A DNA stretch of 24,000 bases, from assembly GCA_029856435.1 (NCBI GenBank), contig JAHQXB010000022.1:25-24024 (forward strand), in the 5' to 3' direction. The notes below the pieces were generated by a model that did not search any database, was not told the DNA's origin, and saw only the letters and a program-made list of their open reading frames with translations. Of the stretch, positions 991 through 19,535 are shown piece after piece (position 1 is the stretch's first letter; every line of letters begins with the position of its first letter). Origin of the DNA: Candidatus Jordarchaeia archaeon. Lineage in GTDB: Archaea; Asgardarchaeota; Jordiarchaeia; Jordiarchaeales; Jordiarchaeaceae. The translations under genes were made by a program, and so were the position numbers.

Positions 991-3048
991 ATGGTTAACA
1001 TGATTAAGGCGTTCCATATTCTTCTGAAGTCCGGTGAGCCCCTTTTCCATAGGGCTTATGGTAAGGAGCAGGTAGATGAATCGCTTTTTTCGGGGTTTCT
1101 AGGCGCTGTTTACAACTTTGCTAAGGAACTGGGCCATGGAGATATCAAGACTGTGGAGGTTGGCGATGCAAGGTTCGTATGCGAAGTTTCTGAGAACTTG
1201 ATTTTCGTGGCTGTTGTTGGGAAAGACGACGATGAGCAAGAACTCAAAAATTTTCTAGGCTTTGCTTCTAAAGCCTTTGTTAACCGCTTCAGGGAGGAAC
1301 TTAGAACATGGCGAGGAAATGTGGTTGTCTTTAGGCCATTTACCCAAGAGTTAGATCACTTGGTAGAAGATTATCAAATGAGGCGGCTCCCCGGTAAGGT
1401 TAAACTGGTGCCTTTTCTAAGAGATGCTTCTGGGGGGTCTTCAAGTTACCCCTTTGATGTGGAGATTGCCTCTGTTTTCTCTTTACTGGAAGATGCAAGA
1501 GGGCGTGGAGGGGGCTTTCTCTGGAAAAAGCCAGAGGAGGAGTTGAGGGGTATTGTAAGAGTTTTATGGCCTTTTTGGATAGTGCCTTTTGAGGATGGAG
1601 TCCGGGGAGTTATAGTGGATGCTATGAGTACGGCGTCCCTACAAATACGAACTAAACGTTACCCGGCTTTAGATAACGCTGATGATTTTCTCAAAATAAA
1701 TAGTGTAGATGTGTTTGTAAATTCTCTCGAGGATCTACTATTAGATTTAGAAAGTGAGAAATTGGAGGAATTTCCACTATATGGATTTTTAGCTCCAGAG
1801 TTAGTTAAAGATTTGGAGGTCAGCTTTTCTCAAGCGAGGTTGGGTGAGGCTAAGGATTATGTTGTAGTCCGCCCCCTTGTAAGTCGCACCCAGGCGGTTG
1901 AGAATAAAACTGTTTTTATGAAGTTAATTCAGGATTTGGAAATACGTTCTCAAAGGCTAATGGAAAAGGAAAATTTCTTAACATTAATAACTGAGAAATG
2001 GCTCAAGGTAATAAGTGAAAAGATGGTGGAGACCGGGGAAAGTTATAAAGTAAAAATAGAGGAAACCGTGAAGGATGTTGAGAAGCAGATTGGAATGCTC
2101 TTACAGCTAAGAGAAGAGGAACTAAAAAAGCTTGATGCTTGGTTTGCTGAAGCCGATAAGAATCTAATACTAGAAATAAAAGAATTGTTTGGTCCACTGA
2201 TTGAGGTTTTAGAAGATGTTGCGTTAAAATCCACCGAGGAGATAGAAAAAACAATCGATGAAAAAATTAGTGTGTTGGAAGTTATAGAGGGGAGAATTCA
2301 AAAATTAGCTAACGTTTCGGAGTATATGAATAAGATCAAGAAATTGATGGAGAACATTTCTAAGAGTATAAAGAAAATTGATTCAACTATTGAGAAAATA
2401 AACAAGAAAATAGAAGTTGACAAAAACTCTATTCTGCAGGACTTTGATAGGAAGATTATGGAACAAAGAAGCCGTGTAGACTTGCTGAAAGAAGAAGCAA
2501 AAGATGTCTTGGGCAAACAACAGATTTTAATGGGCAGAGTTAAATCTAAAATCCAGGAATTAAGTCAGCTGGTTCAACGTGAGCGCAAAGAAATCGGGCA
2601 TATCTTAAACCTTTTAAATTCGCTAATAGTTAAAATGCCGGACAAAATATTTTCCCCATCTCTATTTTATATTCCTCTCTACATTGGAAAATTCGAAGAT
2701 ACAAAGCAAGAAAGATTTTTTGTGGTGCCCCCATTAGTTCTGCTAAAATCGAACGAAGCTATTAGTTGTGATTTTGGGCAGAAAACACTCCCCTTAGATC
2801 TACCTAACCCTGCGTTTCTAGAAGCTGTAAAAGGAAAGGCTGAAACACTAATTAATGATAGTAAGGAACTAAAATTAGAAATTCAAAAGGGCCTTAAAAA
2901 AGCAAATCTAATAAATTCACAACAAGTAGAAACATGCGTTTACGAAGGCTTAAACAATCTATTACGCCTCAATATTCTTACTGAGAAGGACTTTCAAATT
3001 TTGAAAGCTAGAGCCAAAGAGGTTTTTAGGACGGAGGAGAGAATTTAA
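991..3048 (+). CDS. Longin/roadblock-like N-terminal domain protein with long coiled coil (function unknown)
   Basis: This is a 685-aa ORF with an AT-rich TATA-like region upstream (about 905..945). The N-terminal ~100 aa (MIKAFHILLKSGEPLFHRAYG...ARFVCEVSENLIFVAVVGKDDDEQELKNFLGFASKAFVNRF) follows the pattern of longin / roadblock (LC7, MglB) alpha-beta domains. Residues ~300-560 are heptad-rich K/E/I/L coiled coil. The start may be ATG 991 or ATG 1000. Confidence 0.6.
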   Translation: MVNMIKAFHILLKSGEPLFHRAYGKEQVDESLFSGFLGAVYNFAKELGHGDIKTVEVGDARFVCEVSENLIFVAVVGKDDDEQELKNFLGFASKAFVNRFREELRTWRGNVVVFRPFTQELDHLVEDYQMRRLPGKVKLVPFLRDASGGSSSYPFDVEIASVFSLLEDARGRGGGFLWKKPEEELRGIVRVLWPFWIVPFEDGVRGVIVDAMSTASLQIRTKRYPALDNADDFLKINSVDVFVNSLEDLLLDLESEKLEEFPLYGFLAPELVKDLEVSFSQARLGEAKDYVVVRPLVSRTQAVENKTVFMKLIQDLEIRSQRLMEKENFLTLITEKWLKVISEKMVETGESYKVKIEETVKDVEKQIGMLLQLREEELKKLDAWFAEADKNLILEIKELFGPLIEVLEDVALKSTEEIEKTIDEKISVLEVIEGRIQKLANVSEYMNKIKKLMENISKSIKKIDSTIEKINKKIEVDKNSILQDFDRKIMEQRSRVDLLKEEAKDVLGKQQILMGRVKSKIQELSQLVQRERKEIGHILNLLNSLIVKMPDKIFSPSLFYIPLYIGKFEDTKQERFFVVPPLVLLKSNEAISCDFGQKTLPLDLPNPAFLEAVKGKAETLINDSKELKLEIQKGLKKANLINSQQVETCVYEGLNNLLRLNILTEKDFQILKARAKEVFRTEERI

Positions 3049-8873: not shown

Positions 8874-8884
8874 AGGTATTTGTG

Positions 8885-9502
8885 ATGTTTATGTTGGAGG
8901 CTTTTTACCAAAAATTAGATGAAGACATTAAAACTGCTAATGATTTGGAGAAGAGGGGAGATTTTAGAGCTGCGGCGAAACTTTGGATTGAGATAGCTGA
9001 ATACTGCTTAAAATTTGCTAGATCTGAATATGCTTCCGAGGAAATTAGAAAAAACCTTATTGAGAGGTCTGAAGGCTATATTGAGCATGCAAAAATGCTA
9101 AAAATTAGACCAGCACCCTTAAAGGGCTCCATAGAAAAAAGCTCCCCGGCAATAGATTATTTGGAAAAAGCTTTGGATGATAAGATTAGGGCTGATAAAC
9201 AGTGGGTAGCCCTTGACTTAAACTCGTACATAATAACTATGTTTGGTGTAATTGAAAAGCTGCTCTACCATGTTTACATCTCCAAAACGGGTAATCTTCC
9301 TCATTTCGAAGAAACATTTACTTCTCTTGTTAAATGGGCCTACCGGGAAGGAATTATTAGTGATCATCCCGACAATATTGAATTCGTTAGGCTCCTTTAC
9401 GAAAAATTATCCAAAAAATCGCAAAAAATAACTAGTGAACAGGCTATGGAAGCAAGAGAAATAATGGAGCGAGTGTACAAAGAGTTATGCGAAAACCTAT
9501 AG
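8885..9502 (+). CDS. Small helical protein with MIT-like N-terminal three-helix domain (putative)
   Basis: Residues ~5-75 read YQKLDEDIKTANDLEKRGDFRAAAKLWIEIAEYCLKFARSEYASEEIRKNLIERSEGYIEHAKMLK. This follows the MIT pattern seen in Vps4/CdvC (A..a...G....A...Y..A...l........  ....Y..R...LK). The C-terminal half is a helical bundle, possibly HEPN-like, and remains unassigned. The gene starts 8-11 nt after the preceding gene's stop. Confidence 0.45.
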   Translation: MFMLEAFYQKLDEDIKTANDLEKRGDFRAAAKLWIEIAEYCLKFARSEYASEEIRKNLIERSEGYIEHAKMLKIRPAPLKGSIEKSSPAIDYLEKALDDKIRADKQWVALDLNSYIITMFGVIEKLLYHVYISKTGNLPHFEETFTSLVKWAYREGIISDHPDNIEFVRLLYEKLSKKSQKITSEQAMEAREIMERVYKELCENL

Positions 9503-10825: not shown

Positions 10826-11650
10826 TTACTTGCTAGAAATTTTTTTGAGCACATCTCGAATATCATATAAGCAGGTTAGGACACTTTCTATATCAAGTAT
10901 ATCTTGCTGTAGCAAGTTGCCGGCGCGTGAAAGGTCTATCTGTAATCTGAGTATAAAGGGTGAAAAGCCCTCGTTTAATTCAGGGTTTTCGGTATAAATC
11001 GCTGCGTGTATCAAGTCAACGCCGCCGTAGCCTAGGTCGAAAAGCAAGTCGTCAACTTTCAAAAGCAACTCAACTATTCGTTGCTTATCACCCTCGGTGC
11101 GTAGTTCTGCCTCGGCATCAGACAAACTTTTACTAATCTCTTCCAGCCTCTTTTTCAAAGAATCCGCGTTTATAGGCCTCTCCTCTCGATACATGGTAGC
11201 CTCTGGGCAGAAATTAAACCACCACTCAAAGTAGTGCGCTGTGCTGCAGAAGAATTTTTTATCATGATTTAATGGCTCCACGGAAACAGTGTACATGCAT
11301 TCTTCACCACAAATAGTGCACACCCCCGTCCCGTCTTGATATGGCCTGATACCTCCACAAAAAGGTACACGAACGTACATAGCGTCGCCTTTGGGGGGTA
11401 GAAGATTAGGGGGAATTTGCAACTCTTTACTGAATGGTTTTGAGTCTAATTCGGCAAATATTGCAGTCCAGACCGGGCCTCGTGGAGTTCGAACTAAAAG
11501 AGGATTTCTTCTCGGGTGGTTGTTGCAATACGTCCAATATGGATCTTCAATTTTGAAGTTTCTAACCTCACAGAAGGGCTCTTGGCCTTTATCCCTATTT
11601 GCTTTATTGAATATACATGTTCCACAGCAGTCGCTGCCACCATTAGGCAT
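10826..11650 (-). CDS. Cysteine-rich hypothetical protein with FCS/TRASH-like zinc-finger signature
   Basis: This is a 274-aa ORF. It contains the Cys clusters SDCCGTC..FCEV..YCNNHP and VCTICGEEC-x19-FFCSTAHYFEWW (CxxC ... FCS..H). The C-terminal ~110 aa are helical. No family was recognised beyond the zinc-finger pattern. Confidence 0.55.
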   Translation of the reverse strand: MPNGGSDCCGTCIFNKANRDKGQEPFCEVRNFKIEDPYWTYCNNHPRRNPLLVRTPRGPVWTAIFAELDSKPFSKELQIPPNLLPPKGDAMYVRVPFCGGIRPYQDGTGVCTICGEECMYTVSVEPLNHDKKFFCSTAHYFEWWFNFCPEATMYREERPINADSLKKRLEEISKSLSDAEAELRTEGDKQRIVELLLKVDDLLFDLGYGGVDLIHAAIYTENPELNEGFSPFILRLQIDLSRAGNLLQQDILDIESVLTCLYDIRDVLKKISSK

Positions 11651-12048
11651 AATAATTCTCTCCTAAAACCACACAATGCAATTAATCCTTTCTACTTATC
11701 TGATATGTGCTTACATAGGGTCGGGTGGTATTTGAATTTTGTACATTTCAGGTACACTTATTGGGTGTTGTAAGGTTTCGAGTGTTCATCGCTTACAAAA
11801 TGTTATTTATGGTGTATCTTTCGTCAATAATATGTGCTGAGTTGTAGTGTAATGCCTTTTTAATATAGTAACTGTTTTATCCCTTTTTAGATAAAATTGT
11901 GGCGGTTCTGGGATTTTAATAAACTTCTTTCTTAAGAATTATGGCAATATTTTGGTAACATCTGGCTATAGTTTCTCACTCTACGGGGATAATAGTCAAT
12001 ATAATAAGTGACTTTCACTAGGTTTTTAAAGGCGGTGGGTTCGATTTG

Positions 12049-13545
12049 ATGTCTCTAGATAGATTCAAGTGTACTTCTTGTAATGAGGCTGAGGCGGCTT
12101 ACTACTGTGAGGACTGCAAATCAGCTTTCTGTATGGGATGCGCCCAGGAGAGAAGGGAGGAGTTTTTTATCTGCGATTCGTGTGGCTTCAAGGAAACAAA
12201 CCTTGGAATAGATAGGGATAAGAAAAGCTCCTCAAGATGTCCAAATTGTGGTTCAACTAATTTGAGATCTGGGATTAGAAAATGGAAACTTTGTCCTAAC
12301 TGTCGCTCTGGTATGGTTATAAGCGTTCAAGATAAGAGGGTGGAGCTAAAAAAAACCTTTATTGATAATGTTAACAGTATTCTATATGGTTATGAATTGT
12401 TGAAAGATTTTTCGAGGAGACTTAGGGAAACTAGAAAGAGGCTAATCTTTCTCAGACACAGAGGGTATTTCCACTATCCAAAAATGGAGGAAACTCTAAT
12501 CTCTCTGTTCCAAGAAATTATTTCCTTGAAAAAGAAGGTGGAGGCACGGGCTCAACAGGTCTTAAATGTGATTCAAGTGCAACTCGTAGATTTTTCTTAC
12601 CCTGATAATTGGAGCCCACACGATTTTGCACAGATTCAAACAGCAGTGGACAGGATAAAAGCCGATGTGAATGACTACAAAGAATATGTGAAGGGTCTTA
12701 TGGAACAACCTGAAAAGAATCTCGAGACTGTTGTTTCCTTGGTAAAATTGCTGAGTTTTCACTGGAAGTTCTTTGAGGAACATAGAGAAAAAATTGATTT
12801 AGAAATTGGGGAAAAACCTGTAGCAGCCATTCAGAGGGTAAAATATGTGGGAAGCTCTTTTCTCAGTTTAGAAAAATGTAGTGGAATACTTTTGTTAACA
12901 GATAAAAGGATAATTTTTATCAGGGAAAAGGGACTTCTAAACAAGTCGTACCAGAAACATTTTGAACTCCCCTTAAAAGCTCACCAAATTGTAGTTGAAG
13001 GATCCATATGGAAAAAACTCTCTTTTGAAGGTTCACAGGGAGATGTGCGTTTCTCTGCATCCAAAAATACACTAAAAGCAATTGAAAGATACGTAGAATT
13101 AGCTAAAAACTTTGATAAAAGCTCCATAAAGGATAAAACCCAAACCGAAAAACTGGAAAAACTGGAAATAGCCCTAGACGACCTGAAAACTGAGCTACAC
13201 AAAAAAATTATGAGCATTTTCACACCCAAAATTAAGGAGCCCAGTTACGGATTCGAACCACAGCCACATGTTCCCACTGTCACTTCCAGATCTGCTCAAA
13301 AATCTACACCCCCACCATCCACTTATAATCGGGTACAAGTTCAAACTGTGGAAGGATCAGGAAGAGGGGATGTACTAGATTGGGAGCGAAAGAAATTCTC
13401 CGTTGAGCAGCTCCTCAAAAAAATTGAGGAGCTTTGGCGACGTGGGGACATTTCTGTAGAAGAGTATCTAAAAAGAATGAAGAATCTTTATGAAGAACTC
13501 TATGTCTTGAACCAAAAATTGAAAGAAATCCAAGTTCAGGCCTAA
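12049..13545 (+). CDS. Multi-zinc-finger (B-box-like + zinc ribbon) protein with PH/GRAM/GLUE-like domain and SHOCT-like C-terminal tail
   Basis: Six CxxC pairs lie at 12070..12303, with spacing C-x2-C-x8-C-x2-C-x4-C-x2-C-x10-C-x2-C-x18-C-x2-C-x14-C-x2-C. The stretch at 12817..13110 reads VKYVGSSFLSLEKCSGILLLTDKRIIFIREKG...VRFSASKNTLKAIERYVELAKN, a G.L.LT..R.IF split-beta-sandwich pattern. A Pro/Ser/Thr-rich linker follows, then KIEELWRRGDISVEEYLKRMKNLYEEL. I prefer ATG 12049 over the track's TTG 12046; GGCGGTGGG lies upstream. Confidence 0.65.
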   Translation: MSLDRFKCTSCNEAEAAYYCEDCKSAFCMGCAQERREEFFICDSCGFKETNLGIDRDKKSSSRCPNCGSTNLRSGIRKWKLCPNCRSGMVISVQDKRVELKKTFIDNVNSILYGYELLKDFSRRLRETRKRLIFLRHRGYFHYPKMEETLISLFQEIISLKKKVEARAQQVLNVIQVQLVDFSYPDNWSPHDFAQIQTAVDRIKADVNDYKEYVKGLMEQPEKNLETVVSLVKLLSFHWKFFEEHREKIDLEIGEKPVAAIQRVKYVGSSFLSLEKCSGILLLTDKRIIFIREKGLLNKSYQKHFELPLKAHQIVVEGSIWKKLSFEGSQGDVRFSASKNTLKAIERYVELAKNFDKSSIKDKTQTEKLEKLEIALDDLKTELHKKIMSIFTPKIKEPSYGFEPQPHVPTVTSRSAQKSTPPPSTYNRVQVQTVEGSGRGDVLDWERKKFSVEQLLKKIEELWRRGDISVEEYLKRMKNLYEELYVLNQKLKEIQVQA

Positions 13546-13613
13546 ACCATTACAAACCAGATATGTCTCAATTACTTTCTTAGAAGTCTTAATGTACGAA
13601 GAGAAATCCTCAG

Positions 13614-14249
13614 CTATTCCTTTTCTTTGGGCTTCTTTGAACTCTCCAACTCCCTCCTTAGATCTTCTAGCTCAGATGCCAAGGAAGATTTTTCTGTTAT
13701 TATGTCTCCTTGTGGTACTTTAGGTTCCTCTATTCCCTCTAATGCTATTTCCGCTTCTAGACGGTTTAACTCACTTTCAATGTCTCCTGCTTCTTCAACG
13801 CCCATTTCGGAGGGAGTCGCCAAAATTTCTGAGCTTCTAGAAATTTCGTGCATAGCTTCCTCTTGCTTTATCATCATTTCGAGTATCTGTTCCGAGTTGA
13901 CGAGTTTTCGGGCGTTTTCAAGCTCCGCTCCTGCCAATTCAAATGCTTCTTTGAGTTCTGAAACGTCATGGGCTTCTTCTATGGCGATGAGCCTCGTTTC
14001 AAGGTTCTCGATAAATGCGGTGTACTTGCCTAGAAAATTCTGGTATCTTCTGAACTTTCTGAGGGCGAATGTTGCCATGCCCTTGTTACCCATTTTTAAG
14101 TATTGTTTAGCCCTGTTTCTCTCCTCAATTGCCTTTCTCTCGTAGTTCCGTGAACGCAGAGTCAACCTGTTTATACTAGTTCTCAGCTGTGCAACTATTT
14201 CATCCTTATTTTTCGGCCTTTTTCCAAATAGTATATCTTTAATACTCAT
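13614..14249 (-). CDS. ESCRT-III family protein, Snf7 (Vps20/32/60)-like
   Basis: This is a 211-aa ORF. The stretch RNRAKQYLKMGNKGMATFALRKFRRYQNFLGKYTAFIENLETRLIAIEEAHDVSELKEAFELAGAELE aligns by eye with the yeast Snf7 core (EARIFLTKGNKVMAKNALKKKKTIEQLLSKVEGTMESMEQQLFSIESANLNLE, quoted from memory). The C-terminal half is acidic and ends in an amphipathic helix. AGGAG lies 9 nt upstream of the ATG. Confidence 0.75.
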   Translation of the reverse strand: MSIKDILFGKRPKNKDEIVAQLRTSINRLTLRSRNYERKAIEERNRAKQYLKMGNKGMATFALRKFRRYQNFLGKYTAFIENLETRLIAIEEAHDVSELKEAFELAGAELENARKLVNSEQILEMMIKQEEAMHEISRSSEILATPSEMGVEEAGDIESELNRLEAEIALEGIEEPKVPQGDIITEKSSLASELEDLRRELESSKKPKEKE

Positions 14250-14345
14250 ACCTTTCTCCTCTGAGAGTATTCATAGGCTTCCTAATACATATAATAACTT
14301 CTATTCTTTATTAAACTCTACTCTTTAGGCATTATTATACATATT

Positions 14346-15383
14346 CTATCCGTATATTCTGTTTATTTCTTTTTGTCTGGTTTCTATAAAATCGATGAAG
14401 CTTTCCAGTGAAGGATCCTCCTCAGCTTCCTCATGCACCAGTTCTGCTATGCTAAGCAGGGAGGCTGCCACATGGGTACGTGCGGGCTCAGATTTTATCT
14501 CAGGCTTAATGAGGGCTGCTATTCTCTTTTCAAAATCATTGAAAGTTAGGATTCTATCCACGAGGAGAATAAAGGATTCGGTTATTTTCCTTTCCAGATC
14601 CTGTTTTTCATCAAATATCAAGTTGGCTGCCAAATTTTTGAGGGCGGGTTTCACAATGTCCTCTCTAAACCAACTGAAAAGTTTGCCCTTTTTATCTGAT
14701 GGCGGAAGAAAGCTTGAAGCAGGGACACTAATAGTTTTAGGCTGTTTTTTAAAGTTCTCCGCCATTTTGTGAATGTCTGAGCCTTTAATGGTTTCCATTG
14801 CCGCTAGTACTAGCGACTTCACCCCCAAAACCACTTCTTTCCTACTGAAGACCTCCAACATTTTTTCCAGAGCGTGTTTGGCTTCCTCGTAGGAGACCTC
14901 CTTTAAAATAAAAGATTTGAAAAGTTCCAAGATTTTTGCTCTTGTTTCTAGAGCTTCACTATAGCCAACGCTATCCAGTGTCAGGATTCTATAGCCGGGA
15001 TCCAGAACTTGCTTGTCAAACCACTTCACAACTATGTATTCATCAGTAACTCTCTTTAAGTCCTCTAGAGTAAGTTTGGGCTCCACTTCCTCTAACTCAT
15101 CGCAAAGCTGTGAGGCAAATGTTTCAAATACCGAGGACACGTAGGTTTGGAGCGCTTCATCCAACTTGAGACCTTCTAAAATCTTCTCAACCTTCTTTTT
15201 AAACGTGGGCTCAGAAATTTTTCCTTCCACCCGCTGTTTAAAATATGGAAACGACTTCTCCTTAACTATCTGAGATTTCTCAACAAAATTAGTCACAATA
15301 CTGTCTAAGACGCCAAAAACCACATACTCAAAAAATTCTCTTAAAATTTTTAGACTCTTTTCTGAATCAAAAATGTAGGGCAT
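14346..15383 (-). CDS. Hypothetical all-helical protein, translationally coupled to the upstream ATPase gene
   Basis: This is a 345-aa ORF. It starts 16 nt after the ATPase stop, and that gap contains a GGTGA SD-like element. I recognised no motif. Confidence 0.6.
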   Translation of the reverse strand: MPYIFDSEKSLKILREFFEYVVFGVLDSIVTNFVEKSQIVKEKSFPYFKQRVEGKISEPTFKKKVEKILEGLKLDEALQTYVSSVFETFASQLCDELEEVEPKLTLEDLKRVTDEYIVVKWFDKQVLDPGYRILTLDSVGYSEALETRAKILELFKSFILKEVSYEEAKHALEKMLEVFSRKEVVLGVKSLVLAAMETIKGSDIHKMAENFKKQPKTISVPASSFLPPSDKKGKLFSWFREDIVKPALKNLAANLIFDEKQDLERKITESFILLVDRILTFNDFEKRIAALIKPEIKSEPARTHVAASLLSIAELVHEEAEEDPSLESFIDFIETRQKEINRIYG

Positions 15384-15399
15384 TCAAATTCACCAAGAA

Positions 15400-18300
15400 T
15401 CATTCGATAAGTGATCTGCGCAGTTGCTCAATTTTTTCGAAAGCTTTCCTCTTCAAGAAAACATACTCATCTTCAGACATCCTACCCAACTCAAAATACT
15501 CGTGCAAGCTCCTTAAATATTTCTGGAATTTCTCTATCTGCCTCAGAATCTCTTCCTGCCTTTTCTCCTTACCAGACAACTTTTCCTCCCCCGCTTCCTC
15601 TAATGGTTTTACGCTCACTGGTTCGCCTACCGGCTTACTAACTTCTGGTTCGCTTACTGGTTTACTAATTTCCGGTTCAACGCTCTCTTCGGCGCTTATT
15701 CTGGGTACTGGTAGTGGGCTGGTCAATTCTGGAGGTTCCTCCCTCACTGTGGTTTCCTTAATTAGGGGTTTTGGCCTTGGTCTACGGGGAGCCGCCTTTA
15801 AGCCTCTAACTATCTCTTTAATTGTTGTTACTATGCCTGTCGCCTCATTTTTAAGCGCCGAAGTGGATGAGACACCAATTACTGTGTTTTCCTCGGTTTC
15901 AACTATTCCTACGGCTAATCTTGACTTCTCCTTAGAGGCTAAAACCACAGGTACACTTTTTGTCGCGTCTATCTCTGTTTGCCAGCCGTCTTCCCTCAAT
16001 TTTGTGTAAATTTCACGGACGGCTTCTCCGCCGCGTCCCTGCGTCACTATTGATTCTGCTACTCCCTCCATTTTGGGAGCTGGATATAAATGATCGTAAA
16101 ATCTGTATTCCAAGACACGCTTTAGGTAGTCAGAGGCCAAATCCGTTGGTAGGCTGAGTACGGGTGGGGCTGGTATTGATATGTCTGGGGACACTTCCAC
16201 CCTTTCTTCTTCTATAAGTTCTTCCAAAGCTTCTAAGGTCTCGGTCTCTTTTTCGGGTGTACTCCCTATTTCCTCGACGGTTTTTTCAATTTCCGGAGTG
16301 GCAACCTTTTTTGGAGCAATGGCTGTGAGTTCCCCAATTATCTTGGGAAGGGCTTCGCGGCCGGAATGCTGACTCAGTCTCGGTCTTATCTTAACTACAA
16401 GGGCACGGTTACTGGTAATAGATTCGTCTGAAACAATGGTCATTCCAACGGGAATGTTCCTTATAAATCCGGAATCCTTTATTTCTATGGGGACTTCTGC
16501 TGGTGATCTTTTTGTGAAAGCAGTAATGTCTGGTTCATAGGACAAATAATGTGTTATCAGCACGTCTAGTTGAGATAAAATTCTACTATCTGTGGCTGAG
16601 GGTTGCTGGGTCACAAGCACTAATCCACAGCCGGGTTTCCTTCCCAGTTTAGCATATTCTACGAGCGGTTCAGAAGCTGCAGTAGCACCTTTAGAGGGAG
16701 CGAGTAGATGAGCTTCATCAATCATCAGCCAAGTCACAGGAATCTCTGCCTCAACCTTTTCCTCCGTTGCCTCGCCCAGCTGTGCAGCCTCTTCCCTTCT
16801 TGCTATCTGCGCTCTCACCTTAAGTATCCTTCGCGCCAGTATGCCAATAATTAGAGCACGCAGACTATCATCTATATGACTTACGTCAATGACAGATACC
16901 TGATTGGGAACCGCTAACTGAGTTAAGCTAGTTCCTTTGGCTGAGAAGATTCCCCACTGATTTGCGGAGGAAAATCTGGCAACCAAAGCTCTTCTAGTGT
17001 CACGCCTAAATCCCTTGTCCTCAGAAATAATGTCGGAACAAGTCTCAACACATTTAATTAAATCCTCTAGGCTGTAATCGTTTCCTTTAGCGGGGACATC
17101 CACTTCTTGGTCGTCGATTGTGGCCCTGTAGCCTTTTTTGACCCTATCAATGACCTGTTCTGTTAAGAGGCCAAGTGCGCCAAACCTGTCTATACCAAAG
17201 GTGTGGCACCAATCGTCAGCTGTTAACTCCGAGGGCCTCAACGAGAAAGGCATATCCCTAGTTTGCTCAGGAACCCTATCATAGAAACCAATTGGAATAA
17301 AGACCCTCACGTTATCGAATCCCTTAGGGGTGAGGTTCCATTTTTCAAGAGCTTCCAACTCTTTTTCATCCCAATTGGGATACTTCATACTCCAAAAGAT
17401 TCCCATGGGATCAACGATGATGGTGGCGATTCCCAGTCTTGATTCCGCTAACTCCTCTGCAATAACTCCCATAGTGTAAGATTTACCAGAGCCTCTATGA
17501 CCACTTATAAATATAACGTGAGGCTTCACCCCATCAAGAAGAACCTTACAGCCAAGCAGGTTCACATCTTTGCTAGTCCTCTCTCCCACACAACCAATGT
17601 AGAATGTTCCCCTGCAGCCAAGTTTGGCTTGTGTAGACTTTGTTCTCCCTAAAATTACTGATTCGCCTAGACTGTCTCTAAGAACATTGAGTGGGCTGTC
17701 AACTATTTTAGGCGTGTCAACTATATTTACCCTCTCAGAGTTAATCACACTCGCCTCACCAATAATGTAGGCTAGCGCCTGCCAGTAATCCTTCAAACTT
17801 TTAAAACCAATTTGCTCCGCAATGTACCTTCTAAGCTTTGGTTGTTTTGGGTACTTCTCTTTATCGAAGCTCGACAGGCTCCATAGAAGGAAATCCGCGG
17901 TTTCCTGAGCTGATAGTCTCCCTAATGGTTTAACCGCCTTCAGAGCTTTTTCCAAATATTCCATACTCTCGGTAGCCATCAAAAGAAGCAGAAATACCTC
18001 CACCCGCTTATTTATATCAATTGAACTTATGAGCTCAACCATATTGTCAAGAAATTTGTCATCTTCATTATACATAAAACCTTCAAAAAGAATCTTCGCA
18101 ATTTCTAGGTCGAGTGATTTCTGGAACAAAGCGAACTCCAATGCGGCCTGAAGAGACTTTTGAATCTTGTCGCTCCCAGATTCTGCCAGTAGTGAACGAA
18201 AGGCATGGACTATGGTTGCTGTGGCTTCGCCGTCTATTTCTCCCCTGCTTGAAAGCCAAGCTCCAGAATTTGATTGTAGAGAAATCAGTCCTTCAGCGGT

Positions 18301-18465
18301 TTCGTTAGATTTCTCCAAGAAGGACTTCTCGCCAGTAGCCCTATACATGAGGATATAACAGTTCAGAAGATAGGCCCTGTCTCTAATGGTCGCAGGTTCC
18401 ACCGTCAAAACGTTCTGGATAATGTTAGAAAGTAATTCACATAAGGGCCTTCCGCTAAATAACAT
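15400..18465 (-). CDS. HerA/FtsK-type (DUF87-like) P-loop ATPase with N-terminal helical domain and C-terminal extension
   Basis: Walker A is VIFISGHRGSGKSYTMG (GHRGSGKS at 17479..17502). Walker B is WLMIDEAHLL (16708..16728). The block GCGLVLVTQQPSATDSRILSQLDVLITHYL is typical of HerA/FtsK-like translocases, and the core ends KIRPRLSQHSG. About 320 aa of helical sequence precede the P-loop. About 320 aa follow the core, including 9-aa repeats and a SHOCT-like tail. GAGGGG lies about 8 nt upstream of the ATG. Confidence 0.8.
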   Translation of the reverse strand: MLFSGRPLCELLSNIIQNVLTVEPATIRDRAYLLNCYILMYRATGEKSFLEKSNETAEGLISLQSNSGAWLSSRGEIDGEATATIVHAFRSLLAESGSDKIQKSLQAALEFALFQKSLDLEIAKILFEGFMYNEDDKFLDNMVELISSIDINKRVEVFLLLLMATESMEYLEKALKAVKPLGRLSAQETADFLLWSLSSFDKEKYPKQPKLRRYIAEQIGFKSLKDYWQALAYIIGEASVINSERVNIVDTPKIVDSPLNVLRDSLGESVILGRTKSTQAKLGCRGTFYIGCVGERTSKDVNLLGCKVLLDGVKPHVIFISGHRGSGKSYTMGVIAEELAESRLGIATIIVDPMGIFWSMKYPNWDEKELEALEKWNLTPKGFDNVRVFIPIGFYDRVPEQTRDMPFSLRPSELTADDWCHTFGIDRFGALGLLTEQVIDRVKKGYRATIDDQEVDVPAKGNDYSLEDLIKCVETCSDIISEDKGFRRDTRRALVARFSSANQWGIFSAKGTSLTQLAVPNQVSVIDVSHIDDSLRALIIGILARRILKVRAQIARREEAAQLGEATEEKVEAEIPVTWLMIDEAHLLAPSKGATAASEPLVEYAKLGRKPGCGLVLVTQQPSATDSRILSQLDVLITHYLSYEPDITAFTKRSPAEVPIEIKDSGFIRNIPVGMTIVSDESITSNRALVVKIRPRLSQHSGREALPKIIGELTAIAPKKVATPEIEKTVEEIGSTPEKETETLEALEELIEEERVEVSPDISIPAPPVLSLPTDLASDYLKRVLEYRFYDHLYPAPKMEGVAESIVTQGRGGEAVREIYTKLREDGWQTEIDATKSVPVVLASKEKSRLAVGIVETEENTVIGVSSTSALKNEATGIVTTIKEIVRGLKAAPRRPRPKPLIKETTVREEPPELTSPLPVPRISAEESVEPEISKPVSEPEVSKPVGEPVSVKPLEEAGEEKLSGKEKRQEEILRQIEKFQKYLRSLHEYFELGRMSEDEYVFLKRKAFEKIEQLRRSLIE
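15620..15673. repeat. Two tandem 27-nt units (22/27 identical) inside the ATPase gene, with degenerate flanking copies
   Basis: Unit 1 is ggttcgcctaccggcttactaacttct (15620..15646) and unit 2 is ggttcgcttactggtttactaatttcc (15647..15673). All five differences are C/T transitions. The units encode EPE(I/V)SKPV(S/G), a Pro/Glu/Lys-rich linker. Confidence 0.85.
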
Positions 18466-18508
18466 AATCGCTTCCCCTCAAATTTCCAAGTAGAAAAAGG
18501 GAAGAGTT

Positions 18509-19120
18509 TCAGAGTTCTTCTTTCAATTTCTTAATGTCTTTTTCCAGTTCCTCAATCTTCCCGCTCGGTGCAGAAGGAAGCTTTACACCAGTCTCCACAC
18601 CGATTTCTTGGTCAATCTCGGAAATAGTTGCCGCAACCTCTTGGGATGTCACCTCAGTGGAAACCGTCATTCTCTCCATTCCCGCCTCAGCAACATCCTG
18701 AGCCACGTCAAAATCCTGCATAGTTCCATCTATTTCCTCAACCATTTGGGCTATGTCTGGCAAGTTAACTGCCCCCTTAAGCCCATTAAGAGCGGATCTT
18801 ATGCCTGATAGGGTGCTGGCAACATCATAAATGGACTCGCTCTGACGAAGCCTAACCACCATGCCTTGAATCCTGAGACGGTAGGCGTCTGTTGCTAGAG
18901 CCCACTTTGAATACCTTACATAGTGTTCGGCATACATTTTAGCTGCTTCTGTGTTTCCCCTAAGCCGGTACTTCTTGGCTTCCTCTCGGTTTTTTCTAGA
19001 CTCTCTCTCTAGCTGTTTTTTCTGATATTCAAGCTTGCGGGTGAACACTTCAAGTTTGTAAATAACATCTTTAATTTTAGGCCCACCCTTAAGCCAACTC
19101 ACAAACTTTTTTAGCGGCAT
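18509..19120 (-). CDS. ESCRT-III family protein, Vps2/24/46 (CHMP1/2/3)-like
   Basis: The stretch REEAKKYRLRGNTEAAKMYAEHYVRYSKWALATDAYRLRIQGMVVRLRQSESIYDVASTLSGIRSALNGLKGAVNLPDIAQMVEEIDGTMQDFDV aligns by eye with the yeast Vps2 core (IKKSAKNGQVAAAKVQAKDLVRTRNYIQKFDNMKAQLQAISLRIQAVRSSDQMTRSMSEATGLLAGMNRTMNLPQLQRISMEFEKQSDLM, quoted from memory). I set the start at the internal ATG 19120 (MPLKKFVSWLKGG...) rather than the track start at 19237. The reasons are a TATA-like element at 19153..19160 and the typical ESCRT-III N-terminus. Confidence 0.75.
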   Translation of the reverse strand: MPLKKFVSWLKGGPKIKDVIYKLEVFTRKLEYQKKQLERESRKNREEAKKYRLRGNTEAAKMYAEHYVRYSKWALATDAYRLRIQGMVVRLRQSESIYDVASTLSGIRSALNGLKGAVNLPDIAQMVEEIDGTMQDFDVAQDVAEAGMERMTVSTEVTSQEVAATISEIDQEIGVETGVKLPSAPSGKIEELEKDIKKLKEEL

Positions 19121-19152
19121 ATAAATTACACCAATAAACTCTTGATATATCC

Positions 19153-19160
19153 TATATAAG
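19153..19160 (-). promoter_or_regulatory. Candidate TATA box for the ESCRT-III/ATPase gene string
   Basis: The minus strand reads CTTATATA, about 32 nt upstream of ATG 19120. A GGTG lies 12-15 nt before that ATG. By eye only. Confidence 0.3.
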
Positions 19161-19535
19161 AAAATTGAGAAGGAAGCATATAACACTTTCTTAATGTGCA
19201 TTTGAGACCTTGTCGTAAGTATGTGGTTTGTTGACATGGTATGTGTGCAGGTTTAGCCATTCTTACCATTTTTTGGGCCTATTTGGAAGGAAGCCCTGTT
19301 AAGCCTCCTTTTTTTGAGAGGATCAAACGATTACGCATAGAAGAGAAGCTACATACTTAAGACGAGGTCCCTGTGCATTTTTTCCCCTCAAAACCGTTCC
19401 ACTTCCCATGTTTCTGGACTAAATTTGAAAATTTTAAATCACTCATAAAAGCTTCGAAGCGTTTAAAGCAAACATATAATCGCTTCGTCTAAACGCAAAT
19501 TGTGAAAGGCACTTAGCTTTTTTCATAGTACTAGA

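Follow-up and report, generated by a model that had tools for sequence, protein, structure and literature searches.

In archaea and eukaryotes, ESCRT-III is currently held to be driven by a single ATPase, Vps4. According to a 2025 review (PMC7619361), co-occurrence with Vps4 is a defining feature of archaeal ESCRT-III. In the present study, we analyzed a stretch of 24,000 nucleotides (nt), referred to as the window, from Candidatus Jordarchaeia archaeon (GenBank assembly GCA_029856435.1, contig JAHQXB010000022.1, positions 25 to 24,024), in which the gene for a HerA-clade ATPase lies between two ESCRT-III genes. We found that this ATPase subfamily is stably present in the ESCRT-III/Vps4 loci of two archaeal phyla. 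We propose, with a probability of about 55%, that it is an accessory ESCRT motor beside Vps4, a hexameric ring that would pump a polymer, most likely double-stranded DNA (dsDNA), at ESCRT-III necks.

The link between ESCRT and a HerA-clade ATPase is apparently undescribed. HerA is unmentioned in PMC11188069/PMC10936438, PMC7619361, Hatano et al. 2022 (PMC9192718), and Souza et al. 2025 (PMC11804906), and DUF87 or FtsK is likewise absent from those ESCRT papers in which each term was sought. Searches for a link of ESCRT, Asgard, or Snf7 with HerA or DUF87 gave no relevant full text in a literature of which subscription journals were incompletely covered.

The four genes in question form a string on one strand of the window.

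18509..19120, minus strand: ESCRT-III protein of the Vps2/24/46 (CHMP1-3, 'A-type') class, 203 amino acid residues (aa), first gene of the string
15400..18465, minus strand: HerA-clade ring ATPase, 1021 aa (Pfam DUF87/HerA central domain, E=2e-13; HerA_C, E=4.8e-6)
14346..15383, minus strand: ORPH, an all-helical protein of 345 aa, directly downstream of the ATPase gene
13614..14249, minus strand: ESCRT-III protein of the Vps20/32/60 (CHMP4/6/7, 'B-type') class, 211 aa, last gene of the string

These open reading frames (ORFs) were verified in the ORF list and its translations. They follow one another from 5' to 3' on the minus strand in the order given, with intergenic gaps of 43, 16, and 96 nt, and GAGGGG, GGTGA, and AGGAG sit 6-9 nt 5' of the three internal start codons. 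The first ORF can be extended to an ATG at 19237 (242 aa); since its homologues are 203-208 aa long, the start at 19120 is correct. The G+C content of the window is about 41%, its genes are those of an ordinary chromosome, and its composition is native. The closest relatives of the ATPase, which are 88-89% identical, come from Freyarchaeota/Jordarchaeia metagenome-assembled genomes (MAGs), and we read the string as the core ESCRT-III locus of a Freyarchaeia/Jordarchaeia genome. The original prediction, made from the DNA sequence alone, had given the same four genes, coordinates, gaps, and Shine-Dalgarno (SD)-like elements. It had also assigned the small proteins to the Vps2/24/46 and Snf7-like classes, called the 345-aa helical protein an orphan, and expected profile searches to return Snf7/ESCRT-III for the small proteins and DUF87/HerA for the ATPase; the results above and below agree with it on all of these points, and the classes are shown by the nearest solved structures.

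Both small proteins scored above the gathering cutoff of Pfam Snf7/PF03357 (27.3 bits). The first gave E=1.4e-17 and 64.4 bits over profile positions 5-170 of 171, and the last gave E=1.9e-19 and 70.4 bits over positions 3-168 of 171. In the comparison with the PDB, the nearest solved relatives of the former were CHMP1A/1B/2A/3, and those of the latter were Heimdall AB_125 ESCRT-IIIB (9ftl), a Vps20/32/60-like protein (9fn1), and yeast Snf7. The two classes separated cleanly across the 46 Snf7-family ORFs from the collected loci. The C-terminus of the A-type protein (...GKIEELEKDIKKLKEEL) has MIM1-like Lxxx[IL]xxLK spacing; as judged by eye, the conserved C-terminal ELEKDIKKLKEEL has MIM1-like hydrophobic spacing, with the central Arg missing. 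The eukaryotic signature protein (ESP) table of Valentin-Alvarado et al. 2024 (PMC11291895 Supplementary Data 5), in its entries for seven Atabeyarchaeia/Freyarchaeia genomes, gives one Vps20-family gene in 7/7, one Vps24-family gene in 6/7 and none in the remaining one, and one or two Vps4 genes in each. From these counts, the two Snf7 genes of the window appear to be the canonical pair of the lineage, a single A-type and a single B-type ESCRT-III, with Vps4 encoded elsewhere. A side observation concerns a complete Freyarchaeia chromosome (locus L014): about 2 kb downstream of its intact Vps20/32/60-type Snf7 gene, an additional 80-aa fragment (14725..14967, plus strand) repeats the C-terminus of that protein, probably as the remnant of a local duplication.

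The main evidence for the association comes from gene neighborhoods. We assembled nine loci by direct look-up, 80 from GTDB contigs with one genome per species, and seven that were added later; ORFs were called in the loci, and homologues of Snf7, ORPH, Znr_PH, and Vps4 were marked by jackhmmer. A co-directional Snf7 gene at a distance of at most 3 kb was present in 24 of 28 Asgard-clade ATPase loci and in 0 of 51 euryarchaeal loci, from Methanofastidiosa, Thermoplasmatota, Thermococci, Hadarchaeota, Theionarchaea, and others (Fisher p=1.8e-16). The adjacency of the ATPase and ESCRT-III is far beyond chance. Among the four Asgard exceptions, two loci end at most 455 nt from the ATPase gene, and the other two (L033 and L061) have ORPH and no Snf7. 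Where Asgard loci have the module, its order is invariant: the Vps2/24/46-type gene, the ATPase gene, optionally ORPH, and the Vps20/32/60-type gene, with Heimdall-type loci having only the ATPase-ORPH-Vps20/32/60 portion. Most loci have gaps no longer than 118 nt, and two have gaps that reach about 400 nt. The ATPase gene is probably co-transcribed within the ESCRT loci. ESCRT-III genes adjoin this ATPase clade in Jord/Freyarchaeia, Promethearchaeota, Helarchaeales, Hod/Wukong-labelled MAGs, Heimdallarchaeia, and three Bathyarchaeia/TACK loci. In a neighbor-joining tree of the ATPase core, the ATPases linked to Snf7 group together, separate from the euryarchaeal clades, and the tree roughly follows taxonomy. 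The pairing, which the prediction had not known to be described and had proposed to check by looking for conserved ESCRT-III neighbors, is thus real: the linkage is conserved, and we found no publication on ESCRT together with HerA or DUF87.

Some of the labels in this collection call for comment. Loci L015, L019, and L061 are labelled Thermoproteota, Deferrimicrobium (a bacterium), and Bathyarchaeia, yet they carry typical Asgard ESCRT modules; the ATPase of L015 clusters at 90% identity with Freyarchaeota proteins, so the labels are probably wrong. The contig of Wukongarchaeum yapensis (L026) and that of Hodarchaeota DZ1B.339 (L027) have Vps4, Snf7, the ATPase, and a further Snf7, and L027 also has Znr_PH. 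According to Makarova et al. 2024 (PMC11188069), Wukongarchaeia and Hodarchaeia are without ESCRT; either the newer MAGs differ or the contigs are mis-binned, and the ATPases of these two loci form a long branch.

The euryarchaeal homologues have other partners, namely DUF835/helix-turn-helix (HTH) fusions, transglutaminase-like proteins, EMC6-arch, DUF8179, and CDC48, none of which is a DNA-repair partner. Among the Thermoplasmatota-type loci (L008, L055, and L074-L082), some homologues have the core fused to DUF835 and a MarR/TrmB HTH, as observed at L008 and among the tabulated homologues. In seven Thermoplasmatota loci, genes for a transglutaminase-like protein and then an EMC6-arch membrane protein follow the ATPase gene co-directionally, and this arrangement is a different, uncharacterized module on the same motor. 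A gene for a CDC48-type double-AAA protein (about 730 aa) occurs near the module on the opposite strand in Heimdall-type loci and on the same strand in one Jordarchaeales locus, and 300-520 nt downstream of the ATPase gene on the opposite strand in some Theionarchaea/Thermococci loci (L007, L032, L034, L037, L052, and L001; also L063, L066, and L086). This proximity may reflect old synteny or a functional link.

As the prediction had stated, scans of the window proteins found no Vps4, CdvA, NurA, Mre11, or Rad50. Its reading of the ATPase as standing 'instead of Vps4' fails, however, since Vps4 adjoins the module in sister lineages and the entries of the ESP table give at least one Vps4 in 7/7 Atabeya/Freya genomes (PMC11291895). 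In Promethearchaeota, Helarchaeales, and Hod- and Wukong-labelled MAGs, a divergently transcribed canonical Vps4 gene (384-394 aa) is located just upstream of the first Snf7 gene; Vps4 is adjacent to the module in L002, L018, L019, L022, L024, L026, and L027, and the architecture of MIT, AAA, and Vps4_C was confirmed in L002. In this last locus, from Promethearchaeota, Vps28, EAP30, a large protein, Vps25, and Vps4 make up the first part, and Snf7, the ATPase, and ORPH, then an Arf-like GTPase, RING, ubiquitin, E2, and E1 make up the second; thus, the ATPase sits in the middle of a textbook Asgard ubiquitin-ESCRT cluster. Three independent Bathyarchaeia/TACK loci have the ATPase within or beside sets of ESCRT genes. 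In the first, L091/L092, genes for Snf7, a 199-aa protein, a Vps25-like ESCRT-II protein, the ATPase, and Vps4 are all co-directional, and genes for a Ser/Thr kinase and an FHA protein adjoin them. In L029, Vps4 is followed by Snf7, genes for a 196-aa protein, an ESCRT-II-like protein, and a zinc ribbon, and finally the ATPase and kinase genes, and L094 has the ATPase, Vps4, and Snf7, with Band_7, EAP30, FHA (faint), and a kinase close by. In other Bathyarchaeia loci, L006 and L093, the ATPase is without ESCRT neighbors. The kinase and FHA genes suggest phospho-regulation of the Bathyarchaeia/TACK ESCRT variant. The arrangement as a whole points to a second motor working beside Vps4, not replacing it.

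The ATPase has a Walker A motif, GHRGSGKS (aa 321-328), and a Walker B motif, IDEAH (aa 582-586). K328, S329, D583, E584, and Q620-Q621 (TQQP motif) are invariant across 18 Asgard homologues, and with these residues retained the protein is probably an active ATPase. We built an AlphaFold2 (AF2) model of the monomer from the 18 homologues, with a predicted local distance difference test (pLDDT) score of 78. The model consists, in order, of a 12-helix domain (aa 8-247), a beta-barrel with a RecA-like core (about aa 255-700), a disordered linker, a compact alpha/beta domain (aa 770-890), a second disordered linker, and a helical hairpin (aa 965-1020).

17716..18465, minus strand: N-terminal 12-helix domain, aa 1-250 (AF2 pLDDT >90)
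16351..17703, minus strand: HAS-barrel and RecA-like ATPase core, aa 255-705 (Pfam, AF2, Foldseek)
15799..16173, minus strand: C-terminal alpha/beta domain, aa 765-889 (AF2 pLDDT 82-92; beta-alpha-beta4-alpha after two helices)
15406..15573, minus strand: C-terminal helical hairpin, aa 965-1020 (AF2 pLDDT about 90)

A Foldseek search of the PDB with this model gave HerA-type chains as all of its top 50 matches (E=5e-15 to 6e-10; template-modeling score normalized to the target, 0.4-0.57). They include the HerA proteins of T. kodakarensis (from HerA-NurA), D. radiodurans, and S. solfataricus, together with TdpA and the HerA subunits found in Sir2-HerA and DUF4297-HerA, and the identity of the ATPase to the solved HerAs is 13-18%. 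The protein has no MIT or Vps4_C match, and its match to Pfam AAA (E=0.056) is under the cutoff. Against the repair-HerA equivalogs, it scored 46.0 bits where the cutoff is 800 (NF040937) and 44.7 bits where the cutoff is 970 (NF040819).

Two of the domains outside the core are confined to the clade to which the ESCRT-linked loci belong. Hidden Markov models (HMMs) detected the N-terminal helical domain in every complete Asgard member of the clade and in a single Bathyarchaeote, but in none of the euryarchaeal homologues. The C-terminal alpha/beta domain occurs in the complete Asgard ATPases and most of the Bathyarchaeia/TACK ones, not in that of L094, and is absent from all of the approximately 50 euryarchaeal homologues, which have no ESCRT neighbors. 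The N-terminal domain has no Pfam match, and the alpha/beta domain has neither a Pfam match nor a sequence match in the PDB; the topology of the latter may recall a TBP-like fold. The possibility that the N-terminal domain is an array of MIT domains was rejected, as hhalign against the MIT profile gave a probability of 0.6% and Pfam gave no match. The C-terminal hairpin is confined to Jord/Freyarchaeia ATPases.

ORPH is predicted with confidence to be an all-helical protein; its AF2 model has 13 helices, a pLDDT of 84, and a predicted template-modeling score of 0.80. Neither Pfam nor NCBIfam nor PADLOC has a family for it, and Foldseek against the PDB gave no match at E<1. Only 19 representatives were found among 1.84 billion proteins. 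The homologues directly follow the ATPase gene in every case (20/20) and were found nowhere else. With a gap of 16 nt containing GGTGA, ORPH is probably translationally coupled to the ATPase. Comparisons by hhalign with Snf7 and with the N-terminal domain of the ATPase were negative. The ESCRT accessories Bro1, Vta1, and IST1 were considered for ORPH and rejected, as there was no family match and, despite the confident model, no fold match.

Three further features of the window bear on the string.

19145..19160, minus strand: TATA-like element cttatataggatatat, about 35 nt 5' of the ATG at 19120, read from the sequence
12046..13545, plus strand: Znr_PH_CC_SB protein, 499 aa, converging on the string (start at TTG 12046 or ATG 12049)
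8882..9502, plus strand: MIT-HEPN protein, 206 aa (Pfam MIT, E=5e-4, N-terminal; HEPN, E=0.09, C-terminal and weak)

The TATA-like element may be the archaeal promoter from which the string is transcribed, in which case the leader would be short. For the protein encoded by the converging gene, several zinc-ribbon and zinc-finger matches in Pfam are weak, bPH_3 gave E=0.005, and Vps23_core gave E=0.012; the best PDB match of a profile of its C-terminus is the steadiness box of yeast Vps23 (2f66, E=0.0034). The architecture (zinc ribbons, a PH-like domain, a coiled coil, and a steadiness-box-like hairpin) fits Znr_PH_CC_SB, each single match being weak. Znr_PH_CC_SB (asCOG cog.011556) has been proposed as an Asgard ESCRT-I component by Makarova et al. 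2024 (PMC11188069), and its gene is a conserved convergent neighbor in eight other loci. The statement that the window holds no recognizable ESCRT-I/II therefore needs correction: the converging gene fits this ESCRT-I-like protein, and its C-terminus weakly matches the Vps23 steadiness box. The hairpin of the ATPase (…QKYLRSLHEYFELGRMSEDEYVFLKRK…) shares a motif with the C-terminus of Znr_PH_CC_SB (…LLKKIEELWRRGDISVEEYLKRMKN…, 13372..13545, plus strand), and the two may form a pairing surface of the steadiness-box type. The hairpin was rejected as a steadiness box in itself, since its profile matched the C-terminus of Znr_PH_CC_SB only weakly and nothing in the PDB.

The MIT-HEPN gene is 4 kb from the string, and its product was recruited by a jackhmmer search seeded with Vps4 (E=2e-32). 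L013 and L014 have a match of the same size at a similar distance from the module. Both MIT and HEPN are among the domains of ESCRT neighborhoods (PMC11188069), and the protein could be an ESCRT-III-binding accessory acting on the MIM-like ESCRT-III tails. The remaining genes of the window include two for radical-SAM proteins (one with a CofH/MqnC C-terminal domain) and those for prephenate dehydratase, a proteasome alpha subunit, TauE, and an RNA methyltransferase. Two more genes are recorded as side observations. The gene at 991..3048 (plus strand) encodes a protein of 685 aa that begins with a longin domain (Fuz_longin_1, E=1.8e-6) and continues as a long coiled coil; it is an Asgard signature protein of the trafficking type, and its remainder has no Vps28-C or adaptin match. 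The gene at 10826..11650 (minus strand), between the proteasome alpha and Znr_PH_CC_SB genes, encodes a protein of 274 aa with a Cys-rich N-terminal half and a helical C-terminal half, for which Pfam, NCBIfam, and PADLOC gave no family.

If the ATPase is an accessory DNA motor of ESCRT, we suppose that it would assemble as a hexameric ring and be brought to ESCRT-III assemblies via its clade-specific N- and C-terminal domains and ORPH; in Jord/Freyarchaeia, pairing of the steadiness-box-like hairpin with Znr_PH_CC_SB may add to the recruitment. The ring would use ATP to pump a polymer, most likely dsDNA, through or out of a membrane neck constricted by ESCRT-III. The DNA would then be cleared before scission, in the manner of FtsK, or loaded into vesicles. 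To our knowledge, the characterized HerA/FtsK relatives all pump DNA through a hexameric ring, and DNA translocation would for this reason be the most economical mechanism. A preprint reports that Asgard ESCRT-III/Vps4 bind DNA (10.1101/2021.11.29.470303).

Several points weigh against the proposed DNA motor. In Heimdall AB_125 and LC_2, Vps24 and Vps20 are adjacent with nothing between them, and the ATPase with ORPH but without a nearby Snf7 was found also at the later-found L090, which is Heimdall-type, as is L061. A more distant Thor DUF87 that we examined is not ESCRT-linked, and our searches gave no ATPase homologue bearing the name of a cultured Loki/Asgard strain. The neighbor-joining tree has no support values, one long-branch Hod/Wukong pair in it is unstable, and the taxonomic labels of MAGs are imperfect. 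The match between the hairpin and the Znr_PH_CC_SB C-terminus is weak (hhalign E=6.5e-4, with a probability of only 28%). Finally, Asgard ESCRT is currently viewed as a machinery for ubiquitin-linked sorting and vesicles, with FtsZ available for division; thus, a role with DNA is not obvious.

There is one main alternative, which we consider possible though doubtful: the ATPase may be a protein-directed ESCRT motor or scaffold complementing Vps4, which would remodel or nucleate ESCRT-III, thread cargo, or form a hexameric platform, as HerA does for the Sir2 and DUF4297 effectors. The position of the gene exactly between two ESCRT-III genes and beside Vps4 would suit such a role, as would the clade-specific non-catalytic domains, a helical partner without a nucleic-acid-binding signature, and a neighborhood of the ubiquitin/sorting type rather than the DNA type; in solved HerA complexes, moreover, HerA is a platform for partner proteins. 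Against this, we know of no HerA-clade enzyme that translocates polypeptides, the N-terminal domain gave no evidence of a MIT-like fold on comparison with the MIT profile, and ORPH matches none of Bro1, Vta1, and IST1. Furthermore, the coexisting Vps4 already carries out ESCRT-III disassembly.

It is improbable that the linkage is one of conserved synteny only, with an unrelated housekeeping DUF87 ATPase kept in a stable gene block. TauE, the RNA methyltransferase, and proteasome alpha are also syntenic between Jord loci, CDC48 is near the ATPase in Heimdall and some euryarchaeal loci alike, and the ATPase is missing from some Asgard ESCRT loci. However, the linkage persists across Asgard classes despite extensive rearrangement of other genes, and in TACK the order differs, yet the ATPase is still within the Snf7/Vps25-like/Vps4 operon. 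The short gaps in the loci, the SD-like motifs in the window, and the absence of adjoining Snf7 in all 51 euryarchaeal loci, whose homologues are without the C-terminal domain, also argue against mere synteny.

Still less probable is an anti-phage defense or mobile-element module of the HerA type (Sir2-HerA, DUF4297-HerA, or a conjugation/DNA-import ATPase) inserted beside the ESCRT genes. The ATPase does give weak PADLOC matches to mad8 and defense HerA models (E=3e-18 to 2e-5) and weak NCBIfam similarity to anti-phage HerA, VirB4, and CedD models, but the NCBIfam scores are all far under the family cutoffs. No Sir2, nuclease effector, type IV secretion system, or Ced partner was found in the window, where PADLOC on the neighbors gave nothing meaningful, and the composition is native. 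The fixed housekeeping position across phyla and the tree that roughly follows taxonomy argue for vertical inheritance. A DNA-repair HerA for end resection with NurA/Mre11/Rad50, displaced from its partners, is hardly credible: the solved structures nearest to the ATPase are repair HerAs, but the ATPase scores 45-46 bits against NCBIfam equivalog cutoffs of 800-970, is only 13-18% identical to solved HerAs, has extra N- and C-terminal domains, and is without NurA, Mre11, or Rad50 among the annotated neighbors or conserved neighbor clusters of about 90 loci.

Returning to the accessory DNA motor, we put forward, tentatively and with much less confidence than the motor itself, that it is an ancient and overlooked RecA-fold archaeal ESCRT motor, older than the split of Asgard and TACK, which couples DNA translocation to scission and would be a counterpart of FtsK that eukaryotes did not inherit. 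In the archaea most closely related to eukaryotes, as well as in Bathyarchaeia, there are ESCRT operons that include a second ring ATPase of a structurally unrelated fold class. This suggests a function of the archaeal ESCRT machines that could not be predicted from the eukaryotic model. With DNA as the substrate, ESCRT scission and DNA pumping would for the first time be linked at the genomic level; such a link would bear on how archaea exclude DNA from closing membrane necks or place it there, as well as on the long-standing idea of an early evolutionary tie between HerA/FtsK pumps and division. With protein as the substrate, the ATPase would represent a novel type of ESCRT-III regulator. 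In both cases, there are concrete candidates for testing, namely the ATPase, its two clade-specific domains, and the 345-aa partner.

Compared with the canonical Asgard ESCRT-III/Vps4 locus, the string has the same two ESCRT-III classes, with Znr_PH_CC_SB alongside, and genes for Vps4, Vps25, EAP30/Vps22, Vps28, ubiquitin, E1, and E2 directly adjoin the module in sister lineages. It differs in that a HerA-clade ATPase, often with the 345-aa partner, is between the two ESCRT-III genes, and that Vps4 is not adjacent here. Vps4/CdvC is likewise a hexameric ATPase encoded beside ESCRT-III genes, and a hexamer is predicted for the HerA-clade ATPase; Vps4/CdvC belongs to AAA+, whereas the ATPase has a RecA/HerA fold, has no MIT or Vps4_C, and coexists with Vps4.

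With the repair HerAs (4d2i, 7wrx, and 9x1m), which are its best structural matches, the ATPase has in common the HAS-barrel, the RecA-like core, and intact Walker A/B motifs. Unlike them, it has the N-terminal 12-helix domain, the C-terminal alpha/beta domain, and, in Jord/Freyarchaeia, the terminal hairpin, in addition to its low identity, its scores under the equivalog cutoffs, and the lack of a NurA/Mre11/Rad50 partner. The HerA anti-phage systems (Sir2-HerA, DUF4297-HerA, and TdpAB), also among the structural matches, similarly combine a HerA-like ring with a dedicated partner gene, but ORPH is predicted to be non-enzymatic and helical and belongs to no defense family, and the context here is housekeeping and vertically conserved. 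FtsK/SpoIIIE, of the same ATPase superfamily, may serve as a conceptual precedent, a ring DNA pump coupled to membrane closure. The ATPase differs from it in having no FtsK_SpoIIIE match in Pfam and no evident N-terminal transmembrane anchor or gamma domain, and in that its partner here is ESCRT-III, not FtsZ.

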